Below are positions 3,682-34,089 of a stretch of 64,000 nucleotides of DNA, piece by piece. The stretch lies in sequence record NC_015933.1; one strand, written 5' to 3'. The notes under the pieces are model-generated. The model was not told where the DNA came from, searched no databases, and saw nothing but the letters and a program-made list of their open reading frames with translations. Source of the DNA: Escherichia phage vB_EcoP_G7C. How positions within the stretch are numbered: the stretch's first letter is position 1; every line of letters begins with the position of its first letter. A program made the translations under genes and the position numbers.

Positions 3682-3935
3682 TTATTACATTCCCTGTAAC
3701 TAAATCATTTAACTATATGGGACAAACTATTGAAGTCCCATTATGGGTTAAATATGTAGCCTTATTACCTCGTCCTCAGAAGAGTAAGAATGCCTCACTA
3801 ATTGGATTTAGTAGAAAGCCTAAGCTAACTGAAAACTGTATTTGGAAGTCCAGCGGCAGACAAGAAGAAATTGGTTTTTGTGACTATGTACCTCAACCGA
3901 ATACAGTATATCTAACCCTGGAGAAAGTAGAGTGA
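3678..3935 (+). CDS. Hypothetical protein (85 aa)
   Basis: Start overlaps upstream stop in a tightly packed gene run. Confidence 0.4.
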   Translation: MIITFPVTKSFNYMGQTIEVPLWVKYVALLPRPQKSKNASLIGFSRKPKLTENCIWKSSGRQEEIGFCDYVPQPNTVYLTLEKVE

Positions 3936-4246
3936 ATAATATTGTAGTAGTACATGATAATACATTTACTGACGTCGATAAGATGATGCGTAATATTGAT
4001 TATGTATCTCAGACTAGTAAAGCATTTAATGAAAAGTTCATTATTTACTGTGAACCAGAATCACCGCTGGTTCCCGTATTAAAGGAAGCTGGTCTACCCT
4101 TCTCTACAGAGAACTTCCCAGAGGAACCAGAGTATATGATCACATTCATATATGACTTACACGATGGCTCTCCTGCTAGTGAACTGGCTATGAACCAGTG
4201 GAGTAGTAAACGTCCTGTATATGCTTTCCAGGTACTTAAACCATGA
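3932..4246 (+). CDS. Hypothetical protein (104 aa)
   Basis: Start overlaps upstream stop. Confidence 0.45.
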   Translation: MNNIVVVHDNTFTDVDKMMRNIDYVSQTSKAFNEKFIIYCEPESPLVPVLKEAGLPFSTENFPEEPEYMITFIYDLHDGSPASELAMNQWSSKRPVYAFQVLKP

Positions 4247-4485
4247 TCTATGAAGAATATTATGTATTCAAAAAAGGAAATGATTTTATAGCTATGCCCA
4301 ATGATTACATGGATTGGCATACAACTCCTGTATTAAAAGAAGCATTTTCCGTACCTAACCTGGAAGAGGTTAATAAAGTAATGAACGGAGTAATGCTAAC
4401 AAGAGGTATGGCTTACAAAATAGACGCATTAGAAGGAGCTTCTGTATGCAAAGTAACTACATCCATTGAGGTACTTAAACCATGA
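4243..4485 (+). CDS. Hypothetical protein (80 aa)
   Basis: Start overlaps upstream stop. Confidence 0.45.
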   Translation: MIYEEYYVFKKGNDFIAMPNDYMDWHTTPVLKEAFSVPNLEEVNKVMNGVMLTRGMAYKIDALEGASVCKVTTSIEVLKP

Positions 4486-4862
4486 AAGCTATCTCATTAG
4501 GTGATAACACCAATACTCTAATGGGTGAAACTGCTCGCTCAATTACTATTGTTAATAAACATCATGGTAAATCCGGTGAGTATATTGGGCGTGGCTCACC
4601 GTTAGGCAATCCATTCATCATTGGTAAACATGGAACCAGAGAGCAAGTAATTGCTAAGTATAGAGTCTGGCTGCAAGAACAGATTGATAAAGGTAATCCA
4701 GCTGTACTGGATGAACTCAATCGTCTTGGTAATAAAGCCATTGACGAGAAAGGGCTGGCCTTACAGTGCTTCTGCTATCCCAAACCATGTCATGGTGAGG
4801 TTATTAAAGAGAAGCTCGTTCGGGCTATGTATAACTATTTTGTAGAAAATCCAAAAGGGTAA
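4482..4862 (+). CDS. DUF4326-like protein (126 aa)
   Basis: GRGSPLGNPF...CFCYPKPCHGEV motifs resemble the DUF4326 family; not search-verified. Confidence 0.5.
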   Translation: MKAISLGDNTNTLMGETARSITIVNKHHGKSGEYIGRGSPLGNPFIIGKHGTREQVIAKYRVWLQEQIDKGNPAVLDELNRLGNKAIDEKGLALQCFCYPKPCHGEVIKEKLVRAMYNYFVENPKG

Positions 4863-4865
4863 CTA

Positions 4866-5216
4866 ATGAAAGAAATCTTAGTATTCACTACCAATGTACT
4901 TGGGCAGCATACCAATGCTGCTGCCAAGTTAGCTTATAAGAAGCACGGTGCACGTTGGGGTATGGCCTACGGTCATTATGGTAATAGCTTTGCCATTCCA
5001 GTAAGGGATGGCAATGGTAACCGAATTAAAGAGGGTGCTATCTATGGCTTCGTTGAAGGCTTTATTTCCTATGCATCTACTAATCCACAGTGGGATTTCA
5101 AAGTAATGGGAGATGACTTTCTGGACCCATACCTGTTCAATAATGTTACTGGCAATGTACTGTTACCAGAAGCATGGCGTAAATACTTAGGTGATGCTTA
5201 CAACTACTGGTCATAA
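4866..5216 (+). CDS. Hypothetical protein (116 aa)
   Basis: ORF in co-oriented early gene run. Confidence 0.45.
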   Translation: MKEILVFTTNVLGQHTNAAAKLAYKKHGARWGMAYGHYGNSFAIPVRDGNGNRIKEGAIYGFVEGFISYASTNPQWDFKVMGDDFLDPYLFNNVTGNVLLPEAWRKYLGDAYNYWS

Positions 5217-5220
5217 GAAG

Positions 5221-5233
5221 GGTGCTCCGCACC
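5221..5233 (+). promoter_or_regulatory. Candidate virion-RNAP promoter hairpin (ggtGCTCCGCacc) upstream of RNAP II genes
   Basis: Same GCTCCGC core, 5-bp stem, 3-nt loop, about 30 nt upstream of the RNAP II start. Confidence 0.55.
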
Positions 5234-5264: not shown

Positions 5265-6083
5265 ATGTACTCATCTATCGAACATCAGAAGCAACTCGAA
5301 GTACTATTCAATAAAAATCAGCTCCTGCCAAGGATGCGAAAAGAGTTCGAGGACTCCAAAGAAATTGACTTTAAGGCATTCGCTGCCTATTTGGAAATTG
5401 ATTATAAACTGCTCATTGATGCAATGGTGCAGATTGCCCTACATAAACGTGCTGACATCCAGACTATGATTGGCTCTCTCATGAGTCACTCAGATGATGC
5501 TCAGTACATCGCTGACTGTCTGTATAAGATGGCAGAGAATGACTGCTTCAACTATGACCCTACCATCGACAAGTTCGGTGTTATCTATGAGATTAGTGAA
5601 GATGTTCAGATGGAACTGGAAGCATTCCAGTATCCATTACCTATCGTAAGTGCTCCTAATCCTGTCAGAACTAACAGGGATACTGGTTACTACCAGACTA
5701 AGGGAAGCATTATCCTCAAGAAGAACCATCATGAGATGGATGTCTGCCTTGACCATATCAACCGTATGAACAATCAACGTCTCTGTATTAACTGGGATGT
5801 TGCTAACTATGTAAAAGACTCTCGTCCTAATATGGATAAACCCAAAGAGGGTGAAACCCGTCAGGACTATGAGAAACGTGTTAAAGCCTTTGAGAAGTAC
5901 AGTCGTACCGCTAAGGAAGTAATGGAGTTAGTGACTCAGGAAGGTAATAACTTCTCACTAGCGCATAAGTACGATAAGAGAGGGAGAACCTATGCCTGTG
6001 GATACCATATTAACTATGCTGGGACGTCCTACAACAAGGCAGTGGTTGAATTTGCAGACAAAGAACTAGTAAACGAGGATTAG
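5265..6083 (+). CDS. Phage RNA polymerase II, N-terminal (small) subunit of a split T7-like RNAP
   Basis: 272 aa ORF preceding the ORF that carries the T7-RNAP catalytic motifs; size and order match the two-subunit RNAP II of N4-type phages; GGAG 8 nt upstream. Confidence 0.6.
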   Translation: MYSSIEHQKQLEVLFNKNQLLPRMRKEFEDSKEIDFKAFAAYLEIDYKLLIDAMVQIALHKRADIQTMIGSLMSHSDDAQYIADCLYKMAENDCFNYDPTIDKFGVIYEISEDVQMELEAFQYPLPIVSAPNPVRTNRDTGYYQTKGSIILKKNHHEMDVCLDHINRMNNQRLCINWDVANYVKDSRPNMDKPKEGETRQDYEKRVKAFEKYSRTAKEVMELVTQEGNNFSLAHKYDKRGRTYACGYHINYAGTSYNKAVVEFADKELVNED

Positions 6084-6084
6084 T

Positions 6085-6666
6085 ATGAAGACATGTTCAG
6101 TATGTAAGAAGAACTTGCCTCTGGACATGTTCAATAAACAGTCCACAGGTAAGCAAGGTGTAAGGGCAGACTGTAAAGACTGCCTTAAACGATTTATCCG
6201 TTCAAAACACGGAGTCATTAATCAGATGTACTCCGGTTGTATCAGTAGAACTAAGAAGAAGGGGTTTACTCCTGTATCTTTCACAAAGGAGGAACTAGAG
6301 AAATGGGTGTATTCAAGTAAAGAATTTCACGAATTATATGATGAATGGGTATCGAAAGATTACCCAACTAACCTAAAGCCGAGCTTAGATCGGTTGGATG
6401 ATTATAAAGGTTATTCACTGGACAACATTCGTATTGTTACAGCGAATACCAACGTAAAAAGGTACTACTCTGATGCAATCAATGGTATCAACACCAAATC
6501 AGCTAAGCCTGTTGAGCAGTATTCACTAGATGGTAAATACATTAAGACGTTCCATTCACTTAGTGCTGCTGCACGAAGTGTTAAGGGTATACCCTCTAAT
6601 ATTAATCAAGTAATTAACGGTACATATGCGCAAGCATATGGCTATAAGTGGAAACTAGGAGCCTAA
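6085..6666 (+). CDS. Homing-endonuclease-like protein (N-terminal Cys-rich zinc-finger-like region, degenerate HNH-like core, C-terminal NUMOD-like DNA-binding motif)
   Basis: CSVCKK...CKDC; LDRLDDYKGYSLDNIRIV aligns with the DHxDxNxxNNxxSNLRxV core of the AP2-HNH paralogs but lacks the His; C-terminal GIPSNINQVINGTYAQAYGYKWK. Confidence 0.5.
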   Translation: MKTCSVCKKNLPLDMFNKQSTGKQGVRADCKDCLKRFIRSKHGVINQMYSGCISRTKKKGFTPVSFTKEELEKWVYSSKEFHELYDEWVSKDYPTNLKPSLDRLDDYKGYSLDNIRIVTANTNVKRYYSDAINGINTKSAKPVEQYSLDGKYIKTFHSLSAAARSVKGIPSNINQVINGTYAQAYGYKWKLGA

Positions 6667-6667
6667 G

Positions 6668-7885
6668 ATGCAGATTTTCACAGCTAAAGAATATTTAAAA
6701 ATTGATATTGCCAATTCTTACGGGCTGGATAAGAAGACATGGGATGAGCGTATTAGCTGGTTCGATGAGAATGAAGCTAACCTGCTTAATCTGGTAGATG
6801 AAGCTGAAGAATCCGCACTGTTCTATGCTGGCGTAAACGCATGGAAAGACATGAAAGCCGGTAAACCTATCGGTTATGCCGTAGCTCTGGATGCTACATC
6901 ATCTGGTTTGCAGTTACTGGCTTGCCTGACTGGTGACCGTTCTGCTGCTGAACTATGTAACGTAGTTAACTACATGGGTGAGAACGGTAAGCCATTACGT
7001 CGTGATGCTTATACAGTTATCTATCACAAGATGCTGGACATCCTTGGTGAATCATCCCGTATTAAACGTAGTGATACTAAGCAGGCAGTTATGACTGCGT
7101 TCTATGGTTCAGAAGCTAAGCCTAAAGAAGTATTCGGTGAAGGTATTCGTCTCAAGACTTTTGAGAATGTAATGGAAACAGTTGCTAGTGGACCTTGGGC
7201 ACTGAACAAGTTCTTACTGCAATGTGGTAACCCGGATGCTAACCGTTACGTATGGGTACTGCCTGACAACTTCCATGCTGTCATTAAGGTCATGGTTCCA
7301 GAAGTACAGACCGTTAACTTCTTAGGTAAGCCATTCGACATCACCCGTATGGTACAGGGTACTGAAGATAAGACTCGTATGCTCTCTGCTAACATCACTC
7401 ACTCTATTGATGGGATGGTGGTACGTGAAATGCTGCGTCGTTGTAACTTCAACATGAACCAGGTGAACTATGTTAAGTCCCTCTGTGAAGGAACCAGTGA
7501 GTATATGCTGGGTACTAGCGGGAACTACGACATGGTTAGTCAACTGTGGCATAACTATGAGAAATCAGGATTCCTGTCTACCCGTATCTTTGATTATCTG
7601 GATTCTGACTCAATTAAACTGGTTGATACAGATGTAATCATGGCTATGATTAATACTATGCCTAAGAAACCATTCCCTGTAATGACTGTACATGACTGCT
7701 TCCGTTGTCATCCTAACTACGGTAATGATCTGCGTCGTCAGTACAATCAGATTCTGTCTGACATTGCTAAGAGTGATCTACTGGGCTTCATCCTGTCTCA
7801 GGTACTGGGACAAGAGTTCTCTGCTGGTAAGCTGGATGACAGCCTCTGGCAGGACATCCTTGAAACAGACTATGCGTTAAGTTAA
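6668..7885 (+). CDS. Phage RNA polymerase II, catalytic (large) subunit, T7-like single-subunit RNAP palm/fingers
   Basis: ALDATSSGLQ (motif A), RSDTKQAVMTAFYGSEAKP (motif B), VHDCFRC (motif C) align with T7 RNAP DGSCSGIQ / RSVTKRSVMTLAYGSKEFG / HDSFGT. Confidence 0.8.
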   Translation: MQIFTAKEYLKIDIANSYGLDKKTWDERISWFDENEANLLNLVDEAEESALFYAGVNAWKDMKAGKPIGYAVALDATSSGLQLLACLTGDRSAAELCNVVNYMGENGKPLRRDAYTVIYHKMLDILGESSRIKRSDTKQAVMTAFYGSEAKPKEVFGEGIRLKTFENVMETVASGPWALNKFLLQCGNPDANRYVWVLPDNFHAVIKVMVPEVQTVNFLGKPFDITRMVQGTEDKTRMLSANITHSIDGMVVREMLRRCNFNMNQVNYVKSLCEGTSEYMLGTSGNYDMVSQLWHNYEKSGFLSTRIFDYLDSDSIKLVDTDVIMAMINTMPKKPFPVMTVHDCFRCHPNYGNDLRRQYNQILSDIAKSDLLGFILSQVLGQEFSAGKLDDSLWQDILETDYALS

Positions 7886-7892
7886 TAAACTG

Positions 7893-7927
7893 GCCTCATA
7901 CCTTCGGGTATGGGGCTTTTATTTTTT
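7893..7927 (+). terminator. Intrinsic terminator after RNAP II genes
   Basis: CCTCATACC-TTCG-GGTATGGGG stem-loop then TTTTATTTTTT. Confidence 0.65.
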
Positions 7928-10916: not shown

Positions 10917-11393
10917 ATGAACTGGCATGAACTATTTGTTTATAGCAATGGTTCCCTTTACTGGAAAGTAAGTAGGGGCTGCGTAAAAGCAGGTGCCATT
11001 GCTGGTTGTTTGGATAACAGCGGGTATTTGCGTGTTAAATGTAATAGAAAAAATCATTTAGTTCACCGCATAATTTATGAAATGGAAATTGGTCCAATTC
11101 CTGATGGTATGCAGGTAGACCATATTGACCACAATAGGCTAAATAATTACCCAAGTAATTTCCGTTTAGTAACAAACATGGTTAATAGTAAAAACCAAAC
11201 CATGAGAGTAACAAATACATCAGGTGTGACAGGAGTATACTGGCACACTCGGGATAAAATTTGGACTGCCCATATAAATGACAATGGTAAACAAATTTAC
11301 TTAGGAAAATTTAACAGTAAACAAGAAGCCATTTCAGCCAGAAAGGAAGCAGAAAAATTATTGGGCTACCATATAAATCATGGGGAACCCTAA
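10917..11393 (+). CDS. HNH homing endonuclease with AP2 domain (paralog 2)
   Basis: VDHIDHNRLNNYPSNFRLV HNH core; NTSGVTGVYW...WTAHI AP2-like. Confidence 0.7.
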   Translation: MNWHELFVYSNGSLYWKVSRGCVKAGAIAGCLDNSGYLRVKCNRKNHLVHRIIYEMEIGPIPDGMQVDHIDHNRLNNYPSNFRLVTNMVNSKNQTMRVTNTSGVTGVYWHTRDKIWTAHINDNGKQIYLGKFNSKQEAISARKEAEKLLGYHINHGEP

Positions 11394-27077: not shown

Positions 27078-27575
27078 ATGAAACAGAGGATTGCCCATGA
27101 CAGGCTTTTACAGCTTGTTAGTTATGACCCTATTTCCGGAATTTTTACTCGTAGGAATACCGGAAAGGTATCCGGTTACCTAATGAAGAGTGGTTACGTT
27201 CAACTCCGTGTGGATAGTGTGTTGTACTATGGGCATATCCTTGCATGGTTCTATGTGCATGGCGTATGGCCTACGGATAGGATTGACCATAAGGACAATA
27301 TACGCCATCACAACTGGATAGATAACCTCAGAGAAGCGACCCACAAGCAGAATAACCAGAGTGCTGTTTTATCTAAAACAAACACATCTGGGTTTAAGGG
27401 TGTCTCCTTTTCAAAGAATATGGGTAAGTACAGAGCAACTATTTGGGTTAATAGCAAACCAATTACATTAGGTTACACAGATAACCCAATAGAGGCTGCT
27501 GTTCTCTACGATGAAGCTGCTGTAACTCATTATGGTGAGTTTGCCAAAACCAACAAACAATTAGGACTGTTATGA
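27078..27575 (+). CDS. HNH homing endonuclease with AP2 domain (paralog 3)
   Basis: RIDHKDNIRHHNWIDNLREATHKQN HNH core; NTSGFKGVSF...YRATIW AP2-like. Confidence 0.7.
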   Translation: MKQRIAHDRLLQLVSYDPISGIFTRRNTGKVSGYLMKSGYVQLRVDSVLYYGHILAWFYVHGVWPTDRIDHKDNIRHHNWIDNLREATHKQNNQSAVLSKTNTSGFKGVSFSKNMGKYRATIWVNSKPITLGYTDNPIEAAVLYDEAAVTHYGEFAKTNKQLGLL

Positions 27576-33591: not shown

Positions 33592-34089
33592 ATGAGCAAG
33601 CCATTAGGATACTGGAATAAACCTGCCCATGAACTCGCTGTAGTACATTCTCCCGATGATGCCAATGCAAAGGATGGATACATCAGTATTAAACGTCATG
33701 GGGTGAGGGTATTTCTGCACAACTGGATTTGGGAATACTATAATGGACCAATCCCGGATGGGTATGAAGTTGACCACATCAATGGAATCCCAACTGATTG
33801 TCGACTTATTAATATGAGACTGGTGTCCCATATGATTAACTGTCGCAATCGTCGCAAAAGAATTGACAATACATCCGGCGCTACCGGTGTGTATAGACAA
33901 TGGAAGAAGACTAATGAATATTGGACTGCTGCTTGGAATGACCCGCATACAGGTAAGCTACGAACTAAAAGCTTCAACATTGGTGTTCTTGGGGATAGCG
34001 AAGCCAAAGATGCTGCTATAGCATACCGGGCTACTATAGAAGCAGACCTGGTAAAGAATCACAACTACACCTTACGCCATGGAAGATAA
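33592..34089 (+). CDS. HNH homing endonuclease with AP2 domain (paralog 4)
   Basis: Collinear with 1836..2330 over full length (GYEVDHINGIPTDCRLINMRLV; NTSGATGVY...YWTAAW). Confidence 0.7.
   Translation: MSKPLGYWNKPAHELAVVHSPDDANAKDGYISIKRHGVRVFLHNWIWEYYNGPIPDGYEVDHINGIPTDCRLINMRLVSHMINCRNRRKRIDNTSGATGVYRQWKKTNEYWTAAWNDPHTGKLRTKSFNIGVLGDSEAKDAAIAYRATIEADLVKNHNYTLRHGR

Follow-up and report, generated by a model that had tools for sequence, protein, structure and literature searches.

A probable free-standing homing endonuclease gene with a PacI-type core between the two RNA polymerase II subunit genes of a G7C-like phage

In the window, by which is meant the whole 64,000-nt stretch of DNA analysed, the two subunit genes of an N4-type RNA polymerase II (RNAP II) are separated by a 193-aa ORF at 6085-6666. 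This ORF is probably (at a probability of roughly 0.7) an intact homing endonuclease gene of the free-standing kind, which occupies the spacer between the subunit genes of an essential middle-gene RNA polymerase, and it is predicted to support cleavage and to be mobile. Its product would combine a Cys4 zinc ribbon, a PacI-type ββα-metal nuclease core, and a NUMOD1 module resembling the ones found in I-HmuI and I-TevI. The source phage is a G7C-like Gamaleyavirus of the Schitoviridae. All coordinate ranges given below lie on the plus strand.

Three ORFs are found exactly at 5265-6083, 6085-6666, and 6668-7885. The first of them (272 aa) is the RNAP II small subunit gene, a homolog of N4 gp15 (RNAP1); it matches phrog_2166 ('N4-like RNA polymerase') at 1.2e-115 in the PHROG search, and its residues 3-269 align with N4 RNAP1 (PDB 6DT7_A) at E = 1e-116. 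The third (405 aa) is the large subunit gene, a homolog of N4 gp16 (RNAP2), with matches to phrog_2051 (8e-178) and PF00940 (4e-15) and an end-to-end alignment (aa 1-405) with N4 RNAP2 (PDB 6DT7_B, E = 5e-194). By reading of the sequence, motif A of the large subunit is at D75 (ALDATSSG), motif B at K138...Y146-G147 (TKQAVMTAFYGS), and motif C at H342-D343 (VHDCF). On the phrog_414 profile, positions 227-425 are covered by the small subunit and positions 428-595 by the large one, collinear with the single-subunit RNAPs, and T7-like RNAPs span the inter-subunit junction as single-piece alignments. With the concatenated query, about 390 records reach a coverage of 80% or more. The full-length matches to gp15 and gp16 (6DT7 chains A and B, and the PHROGs) bear out the split, heterodimeric N4-type RNAP II proposed in a preliminary description of this DNA, and motifs A, B, and C are, as claimed there, all read in the 405-aa ORF.

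The small subunit gene ends with TAG at 6083, followed by a single base (T6084) and by the ATG of the endonuclease ORF at 6085. This ORF ends with TAA at 6666, and again a single base (G6667) precedes the ATG of the large subunit gene at 6668. The spacers, which had been put at 1-2 nt, are indeed tiny, with 1 nt on each side. A Shine-Dalgarno-like GAGGA at 6075-6079, a candidate ribosome-binding site (RBS) for the endonuclease ORF, sits in the final codons of the small subunit gene (GAG GAT), 5 nt upstream of the ATG at 6085. The corresponding codons are GAG GAT in the window-type carriers and in UE-M6, GAG GAC in HK2, and GAA GAC, GAT GAT, or GAT GAG in endonuclease-free genomes. Likewise, a Shine-Dalgarno-like AGGAG at 6657-6661, the putative RBS of the large subunit gene, sits in the final codons of the endonuclease ORF, 6 nt upstream of the ATG at 6668, and takes the place of the native spacer that is kept upstream of the large subunit gene in phi G17, PhAPEC7, HK2, and UE-M6.

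The end of the three-gene unit is marked by an intrinsic-terminator-like hairpin and T-run at 7892-7917 (an 11-bp stem with six GC pairs, then TTTATTTTTT), and a terminator is annotated at the equivalent place in the PhAPEC7 record. Between the three genes, neither a suitably oriented promoter-like site nor a terminator-like site as strong as that at 7892-7917 is found. It is proposed that the endonuclease gene is co-transcribed with both polymerase subunit genes and translated from the RBS embedded in the 3' end of the small subunit gene. The endonuclease ORF would itself provide the RBS of the large subunit gene, so that polymerase expression would be preserved. The GC content of the insert is 38.7%, vs 42-43.5% in the flanks. 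Weak stems of 5-6 bp, without a clean T-run, occur at 5564 and 6260.

The arrangement had been described as intronless, and this is upheld by the separate ORF and by the Rfam search, which gives no intron in the window and did detect the Moonfish intron. An intron-borne insert was ruled out by the absence of an Rfam match in the window together with the start and stop of the insert's own. A group I intron is present at motif C in a relative.

The N-terminal part of the insert protein (6085-6186) is assigned to a Cys4 zinc ribbon (C4/C7/C30/C33) from its conserved Cys residues and from alignment with residues 1-44 of PacI and with the zinc ribbon of Hpy99I. These Cys residues are kept in 124-125 of the 125 family representatives, a diverse set at 50% identity or less. 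The ββα-metal core (aa 97-132; 6373-6480) is placed by an AlphaFold2 model, by alignment to PacI and I-HmuI, and by conservation. In the model (pLDDT 93.7), a ββα element lies over the motif, two strands (residues 99-103 and 115-119) being followed by a helix (120-132), as in the ββα-metal fold. The C-terminal part (aa 141-191; 6505-6657) is a NUMOD1-type DNA-binding module, with a Pfam match to NUMOD1 (PF07453) at aa 141-171 (E = 6e-8; 33.1 bits vs a gathering cut-off of 22.8).

In the family-profile search, I-HmuI is matched at 8e-4 and PacI, marginally, at E = 0.007-0.016, with the residues D-R...Y...N aligned. The core aligns to 'VDRSDSFEGYS...N' of PacI and to 'VDHKDGN...N' of I-HmuI (the PacI residue numbers are deduced from the profile-alignment coordinates). 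The single insert sequence gives only chance matches against PDB sequences, and the family profile is needed to reach PacI and I-HmuI. The Pfam HNH models (PF01844, PF13392, and others) do not match the insert at E≤1, and hhalign of the family against four canonical HNH_3/AP2 endonucleases is not significant (probability 0.3%), 'N-[IL]-R-x-V-T...N' being the one stretch aligned. The profile and fold matches to PacI and I-HmuI and the NUMOD1 score support the earlier view of the middle ORF as endonuclease-like with a NUMOD-like C-terminus. The family sharing the zinc ribbon, PacI-type core, and NUMOD1 comprises 2,262 clusters at E≤1e-30 and appears to behave like phage homing endonucleases. No second copy of the PacI-like gene is found in the 64,000-nt window; the search gives only four genes, of the HNH_3 type.

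Residues 101-118 of the insert protein read LDRLDDYKGYSLDNIRIV, with Arg at the first-His position of the HNH enzymes. The canonical catalytic His at the end of β1 is absent, its place being taken by Arg103, which, like D102 and Y110, is kept in 125 of the 125 representatives; N123 is kept in 124. In PacI, a His-Me finger variant, an omega-loop Tyr stands in for the His (PMC5714182, PMC4081073; the mechanism is also covered in PMC3384342). By analogy, D102 and N123 are putative metal ligands that would hold the metal ion, R103 stands at the canonical His site, and the omega-loop Y110 would replace the His functionally, as a putative nucleophile or general base. The conserved His-less motif is, to judge from this conservation and from the alignment with PacI, a PacI-type variant of the His-Me finger. 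The preliminary description was therefore correct in seeing an HNH-like core without its first His, Arg103 being found there, but not in calling it degenerate, because the variant is conserved in 124-125 of the 125 representatives.

The distribution of the insert was examined at the gp15/gp16 junction, a comparison across N4-like relatives that had been proposed as a check. The window-type insert is present in 5 of 58 related phage records. The junction of phi G17 is an empty 55-bp spacer; those of PhAPEC7, PBM-2, E20, and IME11 hold small unrelated ORFs (four cassette states of 207-467 bp); and those of HK2, UE-M6, and Mimir124 hold other endonuclease genes, of three other lineages. Such sporadic presence of the insert is what a mobile homing endonuclease gene had been predicted to show. 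The small junction ORFs of PhAPEC7, PBM-2, E20, and IME11 show no similarity to the endonuclease genes by tblastn, and the idea that they are endonuclease remnants was therefore dropped. Farther afield, the Vibrio phage pVco-5 carries a homolog of 39% identity at this very place between the subunit genes, and in N4-like phages of Acinetobacter and Erwinia further homologs adjoin RNAP II genes.

The insert is bordered by divergent tracts on both sides. The left tract (5960-6083), at the 3' end of the small subunit gene, is a candidate co-conversion or target-immunity tract. In the base-level map its differences are mostly synonymous and mosaic among the carriers. Against a background of about 1-5 mismatches per 60 nt, it has 17-24 per 60 nt vs PhAPEC7, phi G17, PBM-2, UE-M6, and IME11, all without the window-type insert; E20, also without it, shows just 8 and 11, and Bas96, with the same insert, 9 and 3. 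The right tract (6668-6730), at the 5' end of the large subunit gene, is delimited by mismatch counts and the base-level map; its first 60 nt have 17-25 mismatches vs genomes without the insert and 4 vs Bas96. Its haplotype is common to five of five carriers and is found in none of the six non-carriers compared. Away from the junction, the endonuclease-free PhAPEC7 (about 30 and 80 mismatches) and the carrier Bas96 (29 and 89) are about equally distant, whereas over three 60-nt bins at the junction they have 60 and 16 mismatches, respectively. The presence of the insert is uncoupled from backbone relatedness. The diverged carrier haplotype hugging the insert is consistent with a co-conversion or immunity tract, which is not the same as proof of endonuclease-driven conversion. 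The flank divergence could instead represent ordinary mosaic recombination at a hotspot.

Other identities for the insert protein may be weighed against these data. According to PHROG and GenBank labels, it would be an enzyme of the T4 endonuclease VII type (F-CphI-like, or a Holliday-junction resolvase): phrog_1035 carries the label 'endonuclease VII', as do several GenBank records, and the CxxC...CxxC arrangement at the N-terminus looks like the zinc site of Endo VII. The Endo VII/F-CphI family, however, is defined by CX2-4C...DHDH...R...CX2C-N (PMC6083498). The label fails because the DHDH motif is absent between the Cys pairs; moreover, no Asn follows the second CxxC, PF02945 is unmatched at E≤1, and 70 residues separate the zinc ribbon from the conserved core downstream, which leaves this identity with hardly any probability. 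It is also very improbable that the nuclease centre is degenerate through loss of the first His and that the gene is a decaying remnant or encodes a catalytically dead DNA-binding protein. The canonical His position does read LDR, the Pfam HNH families are unmatched, and catalysis-free His-Me fingers exist, such as the SMAD MH1 domain (PMC5714182). However, the nearly invariant D/R/Y/N is the exact residue set of an active enzyme, PacI (PMC5714182, PMC4081073), and the groups judged inactive in PMC5714182 lack both His and Tyr, whereas the Tyr is retained here. Furthermore, the dN/dS of the insert is 0.05-0.13, at dS up to 1.0, with 0.03-0.09 in the flanking polymerase genes. The 193-aa ORF is full-length in all five carriers, among which no frameshift or truncation of the gene is found, and 17 of 18 metagenome clusters near-identical to the insert are full-length (193 aa) as well. 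With purifying selection as strong as on its essential neighbours and with D102/R103/Y110/N123 conserved, the 'decaying or repurposed' gene of the preliminary description finds no support.

It is less improbable, though still unlikely, that the gene is domesticated rather than currently mobile, and codes for an active nuclease kept mainly for the benefit of the phage, e.g., by excluding the markers of related competitors, or for a DNA-binding factor with the RNAP II locus as its site of action. The low dN/dS and the ORF intact in every carrier would suit such a role, the translation signals of the gene are packed closely against both polymerase genes, which hinders clean loss, and marker exclusion is established for the T-even free-standing endonucleases (PMC2988022). 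On the other hand, most close relatives thrive without the gene, homologs are found at other positions in other phages, and the insert-linked flank haplotype points to horizontal movement. Domestication and homing overlap, since one and the same cleavage can result in exclusion or in homing. Strong purifying selection over a dS of about 1 fits a phage-useful protein as well as a purely selfish element.

A homing endonuclease gene therefore remains the preferred reading, and the 'classic intronless homing arrangement' claimed earlier is retained as regards the layout, the NUMOD1, the sporadic presence, and the flank haplotypes, but not as regards a degenerate active site. In a mixed infection with a gene-free relative, the endonuclease would nick or cut the free allele near the gp15/gp16 junction, and recombinational repair off the carrier genome would copy the gene and, by co-conversion, some 120 nt of the flank upstream and 60 nt of that downstream. 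The carrier would be immune by virtue of its own diverged flanks. We infer the nuclease activity, the target site, the nick or double-strand cut, and the actual mobility.

The origin and advantage of the heterodimeric RNAP II are called unclear in a review (PMC4496689). The two-subunit N4-type enzyme may conceivably be the scar of an ancient endonuclease insertion, a case of 'genes-in-pieces' like mobE in the nrdA of Aeh1, with the junction then serving as a repeated landing pad. What is observed is the recurrent occupancy of the junction, by at least four endonuclease lineages in Gamaleyavirus and by a homolog in pVco-5, an observation neutral as to the order of events, and the idea is regarded as quite doubtful. 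The junction locus may lend itself to the question whether the two-subunit polymerase arose through such insertions and, with at least nine states, offers a clean natural system for studying competition among endonuclease lineages. Two mislabels, the database name 'endonuclease VII' and the reading as a degenerate HNH, are corrected. The His-free, Tyr-using PacI-type centre, known from one restriction enzyme, appears to define a large family. If the protein is active, it would represent a new catalytic flavour of homing endonuclease, from which compact nickases or cutters with sequence specificity could be drawn.

Among known systems, R.PacI (PDB 3LDY/3M7K; His-Me finger 'group 20') shares with the insert protein an N-terminal Cys4 zinc ribbon ahead of a ββα-metal core, and the motif V-D-R-x-D-x(3)-G-Y-S...N, with Asp and Asn ligands, Arg at the His site, and an omega-loop Tyr (PMC5714182, PMC4081073). 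In contrast to the insert, PacI is a restriction enzyme, a homodimer of 142-aa subunits that has two zinc sites and targets an 8-bp palindrome. The insert protein has just the N-terminal Cys4, without the second Cys pair of PacI in the core helix (IVTANTN vs ACFICN), and adds a helical linker and the C-terminal NUMOD1; it is the product of a mobile-looking phage gene, and its sequence similarity to PacI is only marginally significant. I-HmuI (PDB 1U3E), one of the related NUMOD phage HNH endonucleases, is an intron-encoded nickase with a canonical D74-H75, whereas the insert has Arg for His, a zinc ribbon ahead of the core, and a free-standing gene.

The PacI-like HNH genes of lactococcal Skunavirus (PMC12724721) are likewise phage-borne, free-standing, variably present, and PacI-like by profile comparison, a likeness to the insert drawn from their description. 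They differ in host, in their locus in the morphogenesis module, and in being rare (2/268), and the one PacI-like enzyme tested in Skunavirus does not figure among the enzymes for which reduced plaquing is reported (PMC12724721). The T-even Seg/Mob free-standing endonucleases, and mobE splitting the nrdA of Aeh1, share with the insert the siting beside essential genes and the presence/absence polymorphism, as well as flank co-conversion, for which the insert is a candidate, and the mutual replacement of endonuclease genes at one site (PMC2988022). Their chemistry, however, is GIY-YIG or canonical HNH, whereas that of the insert would be of the PacI type, at the RNAP II locus of Schitoviridae, with activity and mobility predicted. 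Finally, both flanking genes are clear orthologs of the subunits of the N4 RNAP II (gp15 and gp16; 6DT7), and here as in N4 it is the large subunit that carries motifs A, B, and C (PMC4496689). N4 has no homing endonuclease genes (PMC3670811), whereas in this Gamaleyavirus the inter-subunit spacer is occupied.

All three plus-strand ORFs lie at the coordinates that the preliminary description had given. The stop codon of the small-subunit ORF (gp15; 5265-6083, 272 aa) is a TAG at 6081-6083 and that of the insert (6085-6666, 193 aa) a TAA at 6664-6666; the large-subunit ORF (gp16; 6668-7885, 405 aa) starts at 6668, and a single base separates the insert from either neighbour. The proposed N4-type heterodimeric RNA polymerase II (RNAP II) is borne out for both outer ORFs. 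The small subunit matches phrog_2166 'N4-like RNA polymerase' (1.2e-115) and the large subunit matches phrog_2051 (8e-178) and PF00940 (4e-15), and the two match chains A (1e-116) and B (5e-194) of the N4 RNAPII heterodimer structure 6DT7 from end to end. The 405-aa ORF contains each of motifs A (D75), B (K138, Y146) and C (H342-D343), as had been claimed, and N4 gp16 likewise bears them (PMC4496689). On phrog_414, a single-subunit polymerase profile, the small subunit stops at position 425 and the large subunit starts at 428, and T7-like polymerases in the alignment span this junction in one piece. The position of the insert therefore coincides exactly with the point at which the enzyme is split.

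In Pfam, the insert matches NUMOD1 above threshold (aa 141-171, E = 6e-8), in agreement with the NUMOD-like C-terminus described earlier, and matches no HNH or Endonuclease_7 model. Its endonuclease likeness is upheld by the family profile, which has two matches among solved structures: I-HmuI (8e-4), across the core and the NUMOD region, and PacI (7e-3), across the zinc ribbon and VDRSDSFEGYS...N. D102-R103 of the insert fall on the D-H of I-HmuI and N123 on its metal-binding Asn, and the PacI motif agrees residue for residue with VDRxDDYxGYS...N of the insert family. Across 24 aligned homologs, the most distant at 31% identity, P99, S100, R103, D106, Y110 and N123 are invariant, and C4, C7, C30, C33 and D102 nearly so. 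PacI is a documented His-Me finger nuclease without the catalytic His, the role of which is taken by an omega-loop Tyr (PMC5714182, PMC4081073, PMC3384342). Therefore, the HNH-like core does lack its first His (R103 stands there), as was noted, but it appears to be a PacI-type variant and not 'degenerate'. The insert also matches phrog_1035, labelled 'endonuclease VII' (1.6e-30). The defining motif of the Endo VII/F-CphI family is CX2-4C...DHDH...R...CX2C-N (PMC6083498), of which the insert has just the Cys scaffold, so this label is unsupported.

At a cut-off of E ≤ 1e-30, an exhaustive profile search with the insert family gave 2,262 representative clusters. Among 125 full-length representatives, D102, R103 and Y110 are present in all, N123 in 124, and the four zinc Cys in 124-125. 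In the five carrier phages (those with a window-type insert), the dN/dS of the insert is 0.05-0.13 (dS up to 1.0), compared with 0.03-0.07 for gp15 and 0.04-0.09 for gp16; no truncated or frameshifted copy occurs among them, and near-identical metagenome clusters are full-length in 17 of 18. His-Me groups judged inactive lack both His and Tyr (PMC5714182), whereas the insert family retains the Tyr. The conserved tetrad, the low dN/dS and the intact carrier copies speak against the suggestion that the insert is decaying or repurposed. The top-scoring profile matches (P0053-P0059 and similar) are proteins of great length, up to 1,791 aa, and of unusual architecture, with 9-14 tandem NUMOD-like repeats, the best stretch being without a full nuclease match.

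The RNAP II region is 90-94% identical to those of Gamaleyavirus phages (G7C-like, Schitoviridae; E. coli/Shigella hosts), with RudolfBernhard_Bas96 (Bas96) the top full-length match (92.4%). Comparison of the gp15/gp16 junction across relatives, as proposed at the outset, found it polymorphic, the insert being present in just 5 of 58 related records (Bas96, ST4, PGN829.1 twice, and Moonfish). The spacer is empty in phi G17 (55 bp), holds small ORFs in PhAPEC7 (207 bp), PBM-2 (289 bp), E20 (438 bp) and IME11 (467 bp), an HNH_3-type endonuclease in Mimir124 (524 bp) and UE-M6 (552 bp), the window-type PacI-like endonuclease in the window and Bas96 (584 bp), and a second PacI-like lineage, 33% identical, in HK2 and pSb-1 (671 bp). 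The distant Vibrio phage pVco-5 has a 39%-identical homolog at the same inter-subunit position, and in Acinetobacter phage XC38 and Erwinia phage MIF8 homologs follow shortly after the RNAP II genes. The small ORFs of the 'empty' junctions (38-80 aa; records L002, 2309-2470; L009, 1112-1351; L007, 1112-1503; L008, 1109-1529) are modular and recombine as cassettes; in IME11, the ORFs of PhAPEC7 and PBM-2 occur together. No similarity of the small ORFs to the junction endonucleases was detected, and they were rejected as remnants of any of these.

Mismatches between the window and each relative were counted in 60-nt bins. Against the endonuclease-free PhAPEC7 and phi G17, there are 17-23 mismatches in each of three junction bins (two at the end of the small-subunit gene, one at the start of the large-subunit gene) and usually about 1-5 elsewhere; for Bas96, with its window-type insert, the counts in the three bins are 9, 3 and 4. 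Off the junction, PhAPEC7 and Bas96 are equally near the window (about 30 versus 29 mismatches in gp15, 80 versus 89 in gp16), and therefore presence of the insert is uncoupled from backbone relatedness. Single-base comparison shows a haplotype at 6668-~6730 common to all five carriers and differing from every compared genome without the insert at about 20 positions, mostly synonymous; beyond ~6735 the sequences converge. Mosaicism is more pronounced in the left tract (~5960-6083) than in the right. This pattern is consistent with the trace expected of homing-endonuclease co-conversion and target-site immunity, and ordinary recombination at a hotspot could also give rise to the flank divergence. 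E20 (L007, 301-1119; junction 1120-1557), which has no junction endonuclease, has a carrier-like small-subunit 3' end (8 and 11 mismatches versus about 20 in other non-carriers) and a large-subunit 5' end of non-carrier type, which suggests either that an endonuclease was once lost here or that recombination broke within the junction.

A sequence scan found no strong terminator-like and no suitably oriented promoter-like site between the three genes; a strong terminator-like site follows them (7892-7917, plus strand). In carriers, the last small-subunit codons, GAG GAT TAG, place GAGGA 5 nt before the insert ATG, and in place of GAG GAT the endonuclease-free genomes read GAA GAC or similar. 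Within its last codons, the insert has AGGAG at a distance of 6 nt from the large-subunit ATG, instead of the native spacer, which HK2- and UE-M6-type inserts keep intact. We infer roles in expression for both motifs and the terminator-like site.

Related elements occur elsewhere. Free-standing HNH_3/AP2-type endonuclease-like genes lie on the plus strand at ~1839-2324, 10917-11393 (PF13392 at 9e-18 plus AP2), 27105-27563 and 33601-34086; with the insert, the genome therefore has at least five homing-endonuclease-like genes. Relatives of these four include the junction endonucleases of UE-M6 and Mimir124 and the intron endonuclease of Moonfish (L006). The large-subunit gene of Moonfish is interrupted by a genuine group I intron (3924-4167; Rfam RF00028, 91 bits), which an HNH_3-type endonuclease ORF (4228-4872) follows; the intron lies at codon ~341, directly ahead of the His-Asp of motif C. 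At the equivalent position (~7688), the window is intron-free. Just upstream, a second divergence hotspot (7448-7688; large-subunit nt ~780-1020) has 18-19 mismatches within a single 60-nt bin against Bas96, PhAPEC7, phi G17 and E20, and 14-35 across four bins against UE-M6, IME11 and PBM-2, and may have been left behind by co-conversion with an intron or endonuclease at motif C. In pVco-5 (L011; 3132-3581 / 3723-4271 / 4440-5228) and XC38 (L012; 350-781 / 911-1438 / 1708-2424), the annotation divides the large-subunit gene into two pieces around another ORF. No Rfam intron reached threshold in these regions. Introns that have diverged, or real splitting of the gene, could account for the pieces, which are probably the explanation for the exceptions with 'gp16 split into two genes' mentioned in PMC4496689.

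It seems improbable that an ancient endonuclease insertion itself created the two-subunit polymerase, the origin of which is stated as unclear (PMC4496689); what the data show is that the junction is recurrently occupied. As predicted from sequence, the arrangement is that of a textbook free-standing homing endonuclease gene beside essential genes, for which both such adjacency and alternative endonucleases at one site are on record (PMC2988022; PMC10448857). Homing endonuclease genes are absent from N4 itself (PMC3670811), close relatives' annotation of the insert is already '(putative) HNH homing endonuclease', and rare PacI-like HNH genes, their activity not demonstrated, have been noted in Skunavirus phages (PMC12724721). 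To these the present analysis adds the strong purifying selection on the insert and the insert-linked flank haplotypes, together with the assignment of the putative active site to the PacI type, the near-absolute conservation of this predicted site in a large uncharacterised family, and a picture of the RNAP II junction as a multi-lineage hotspot.
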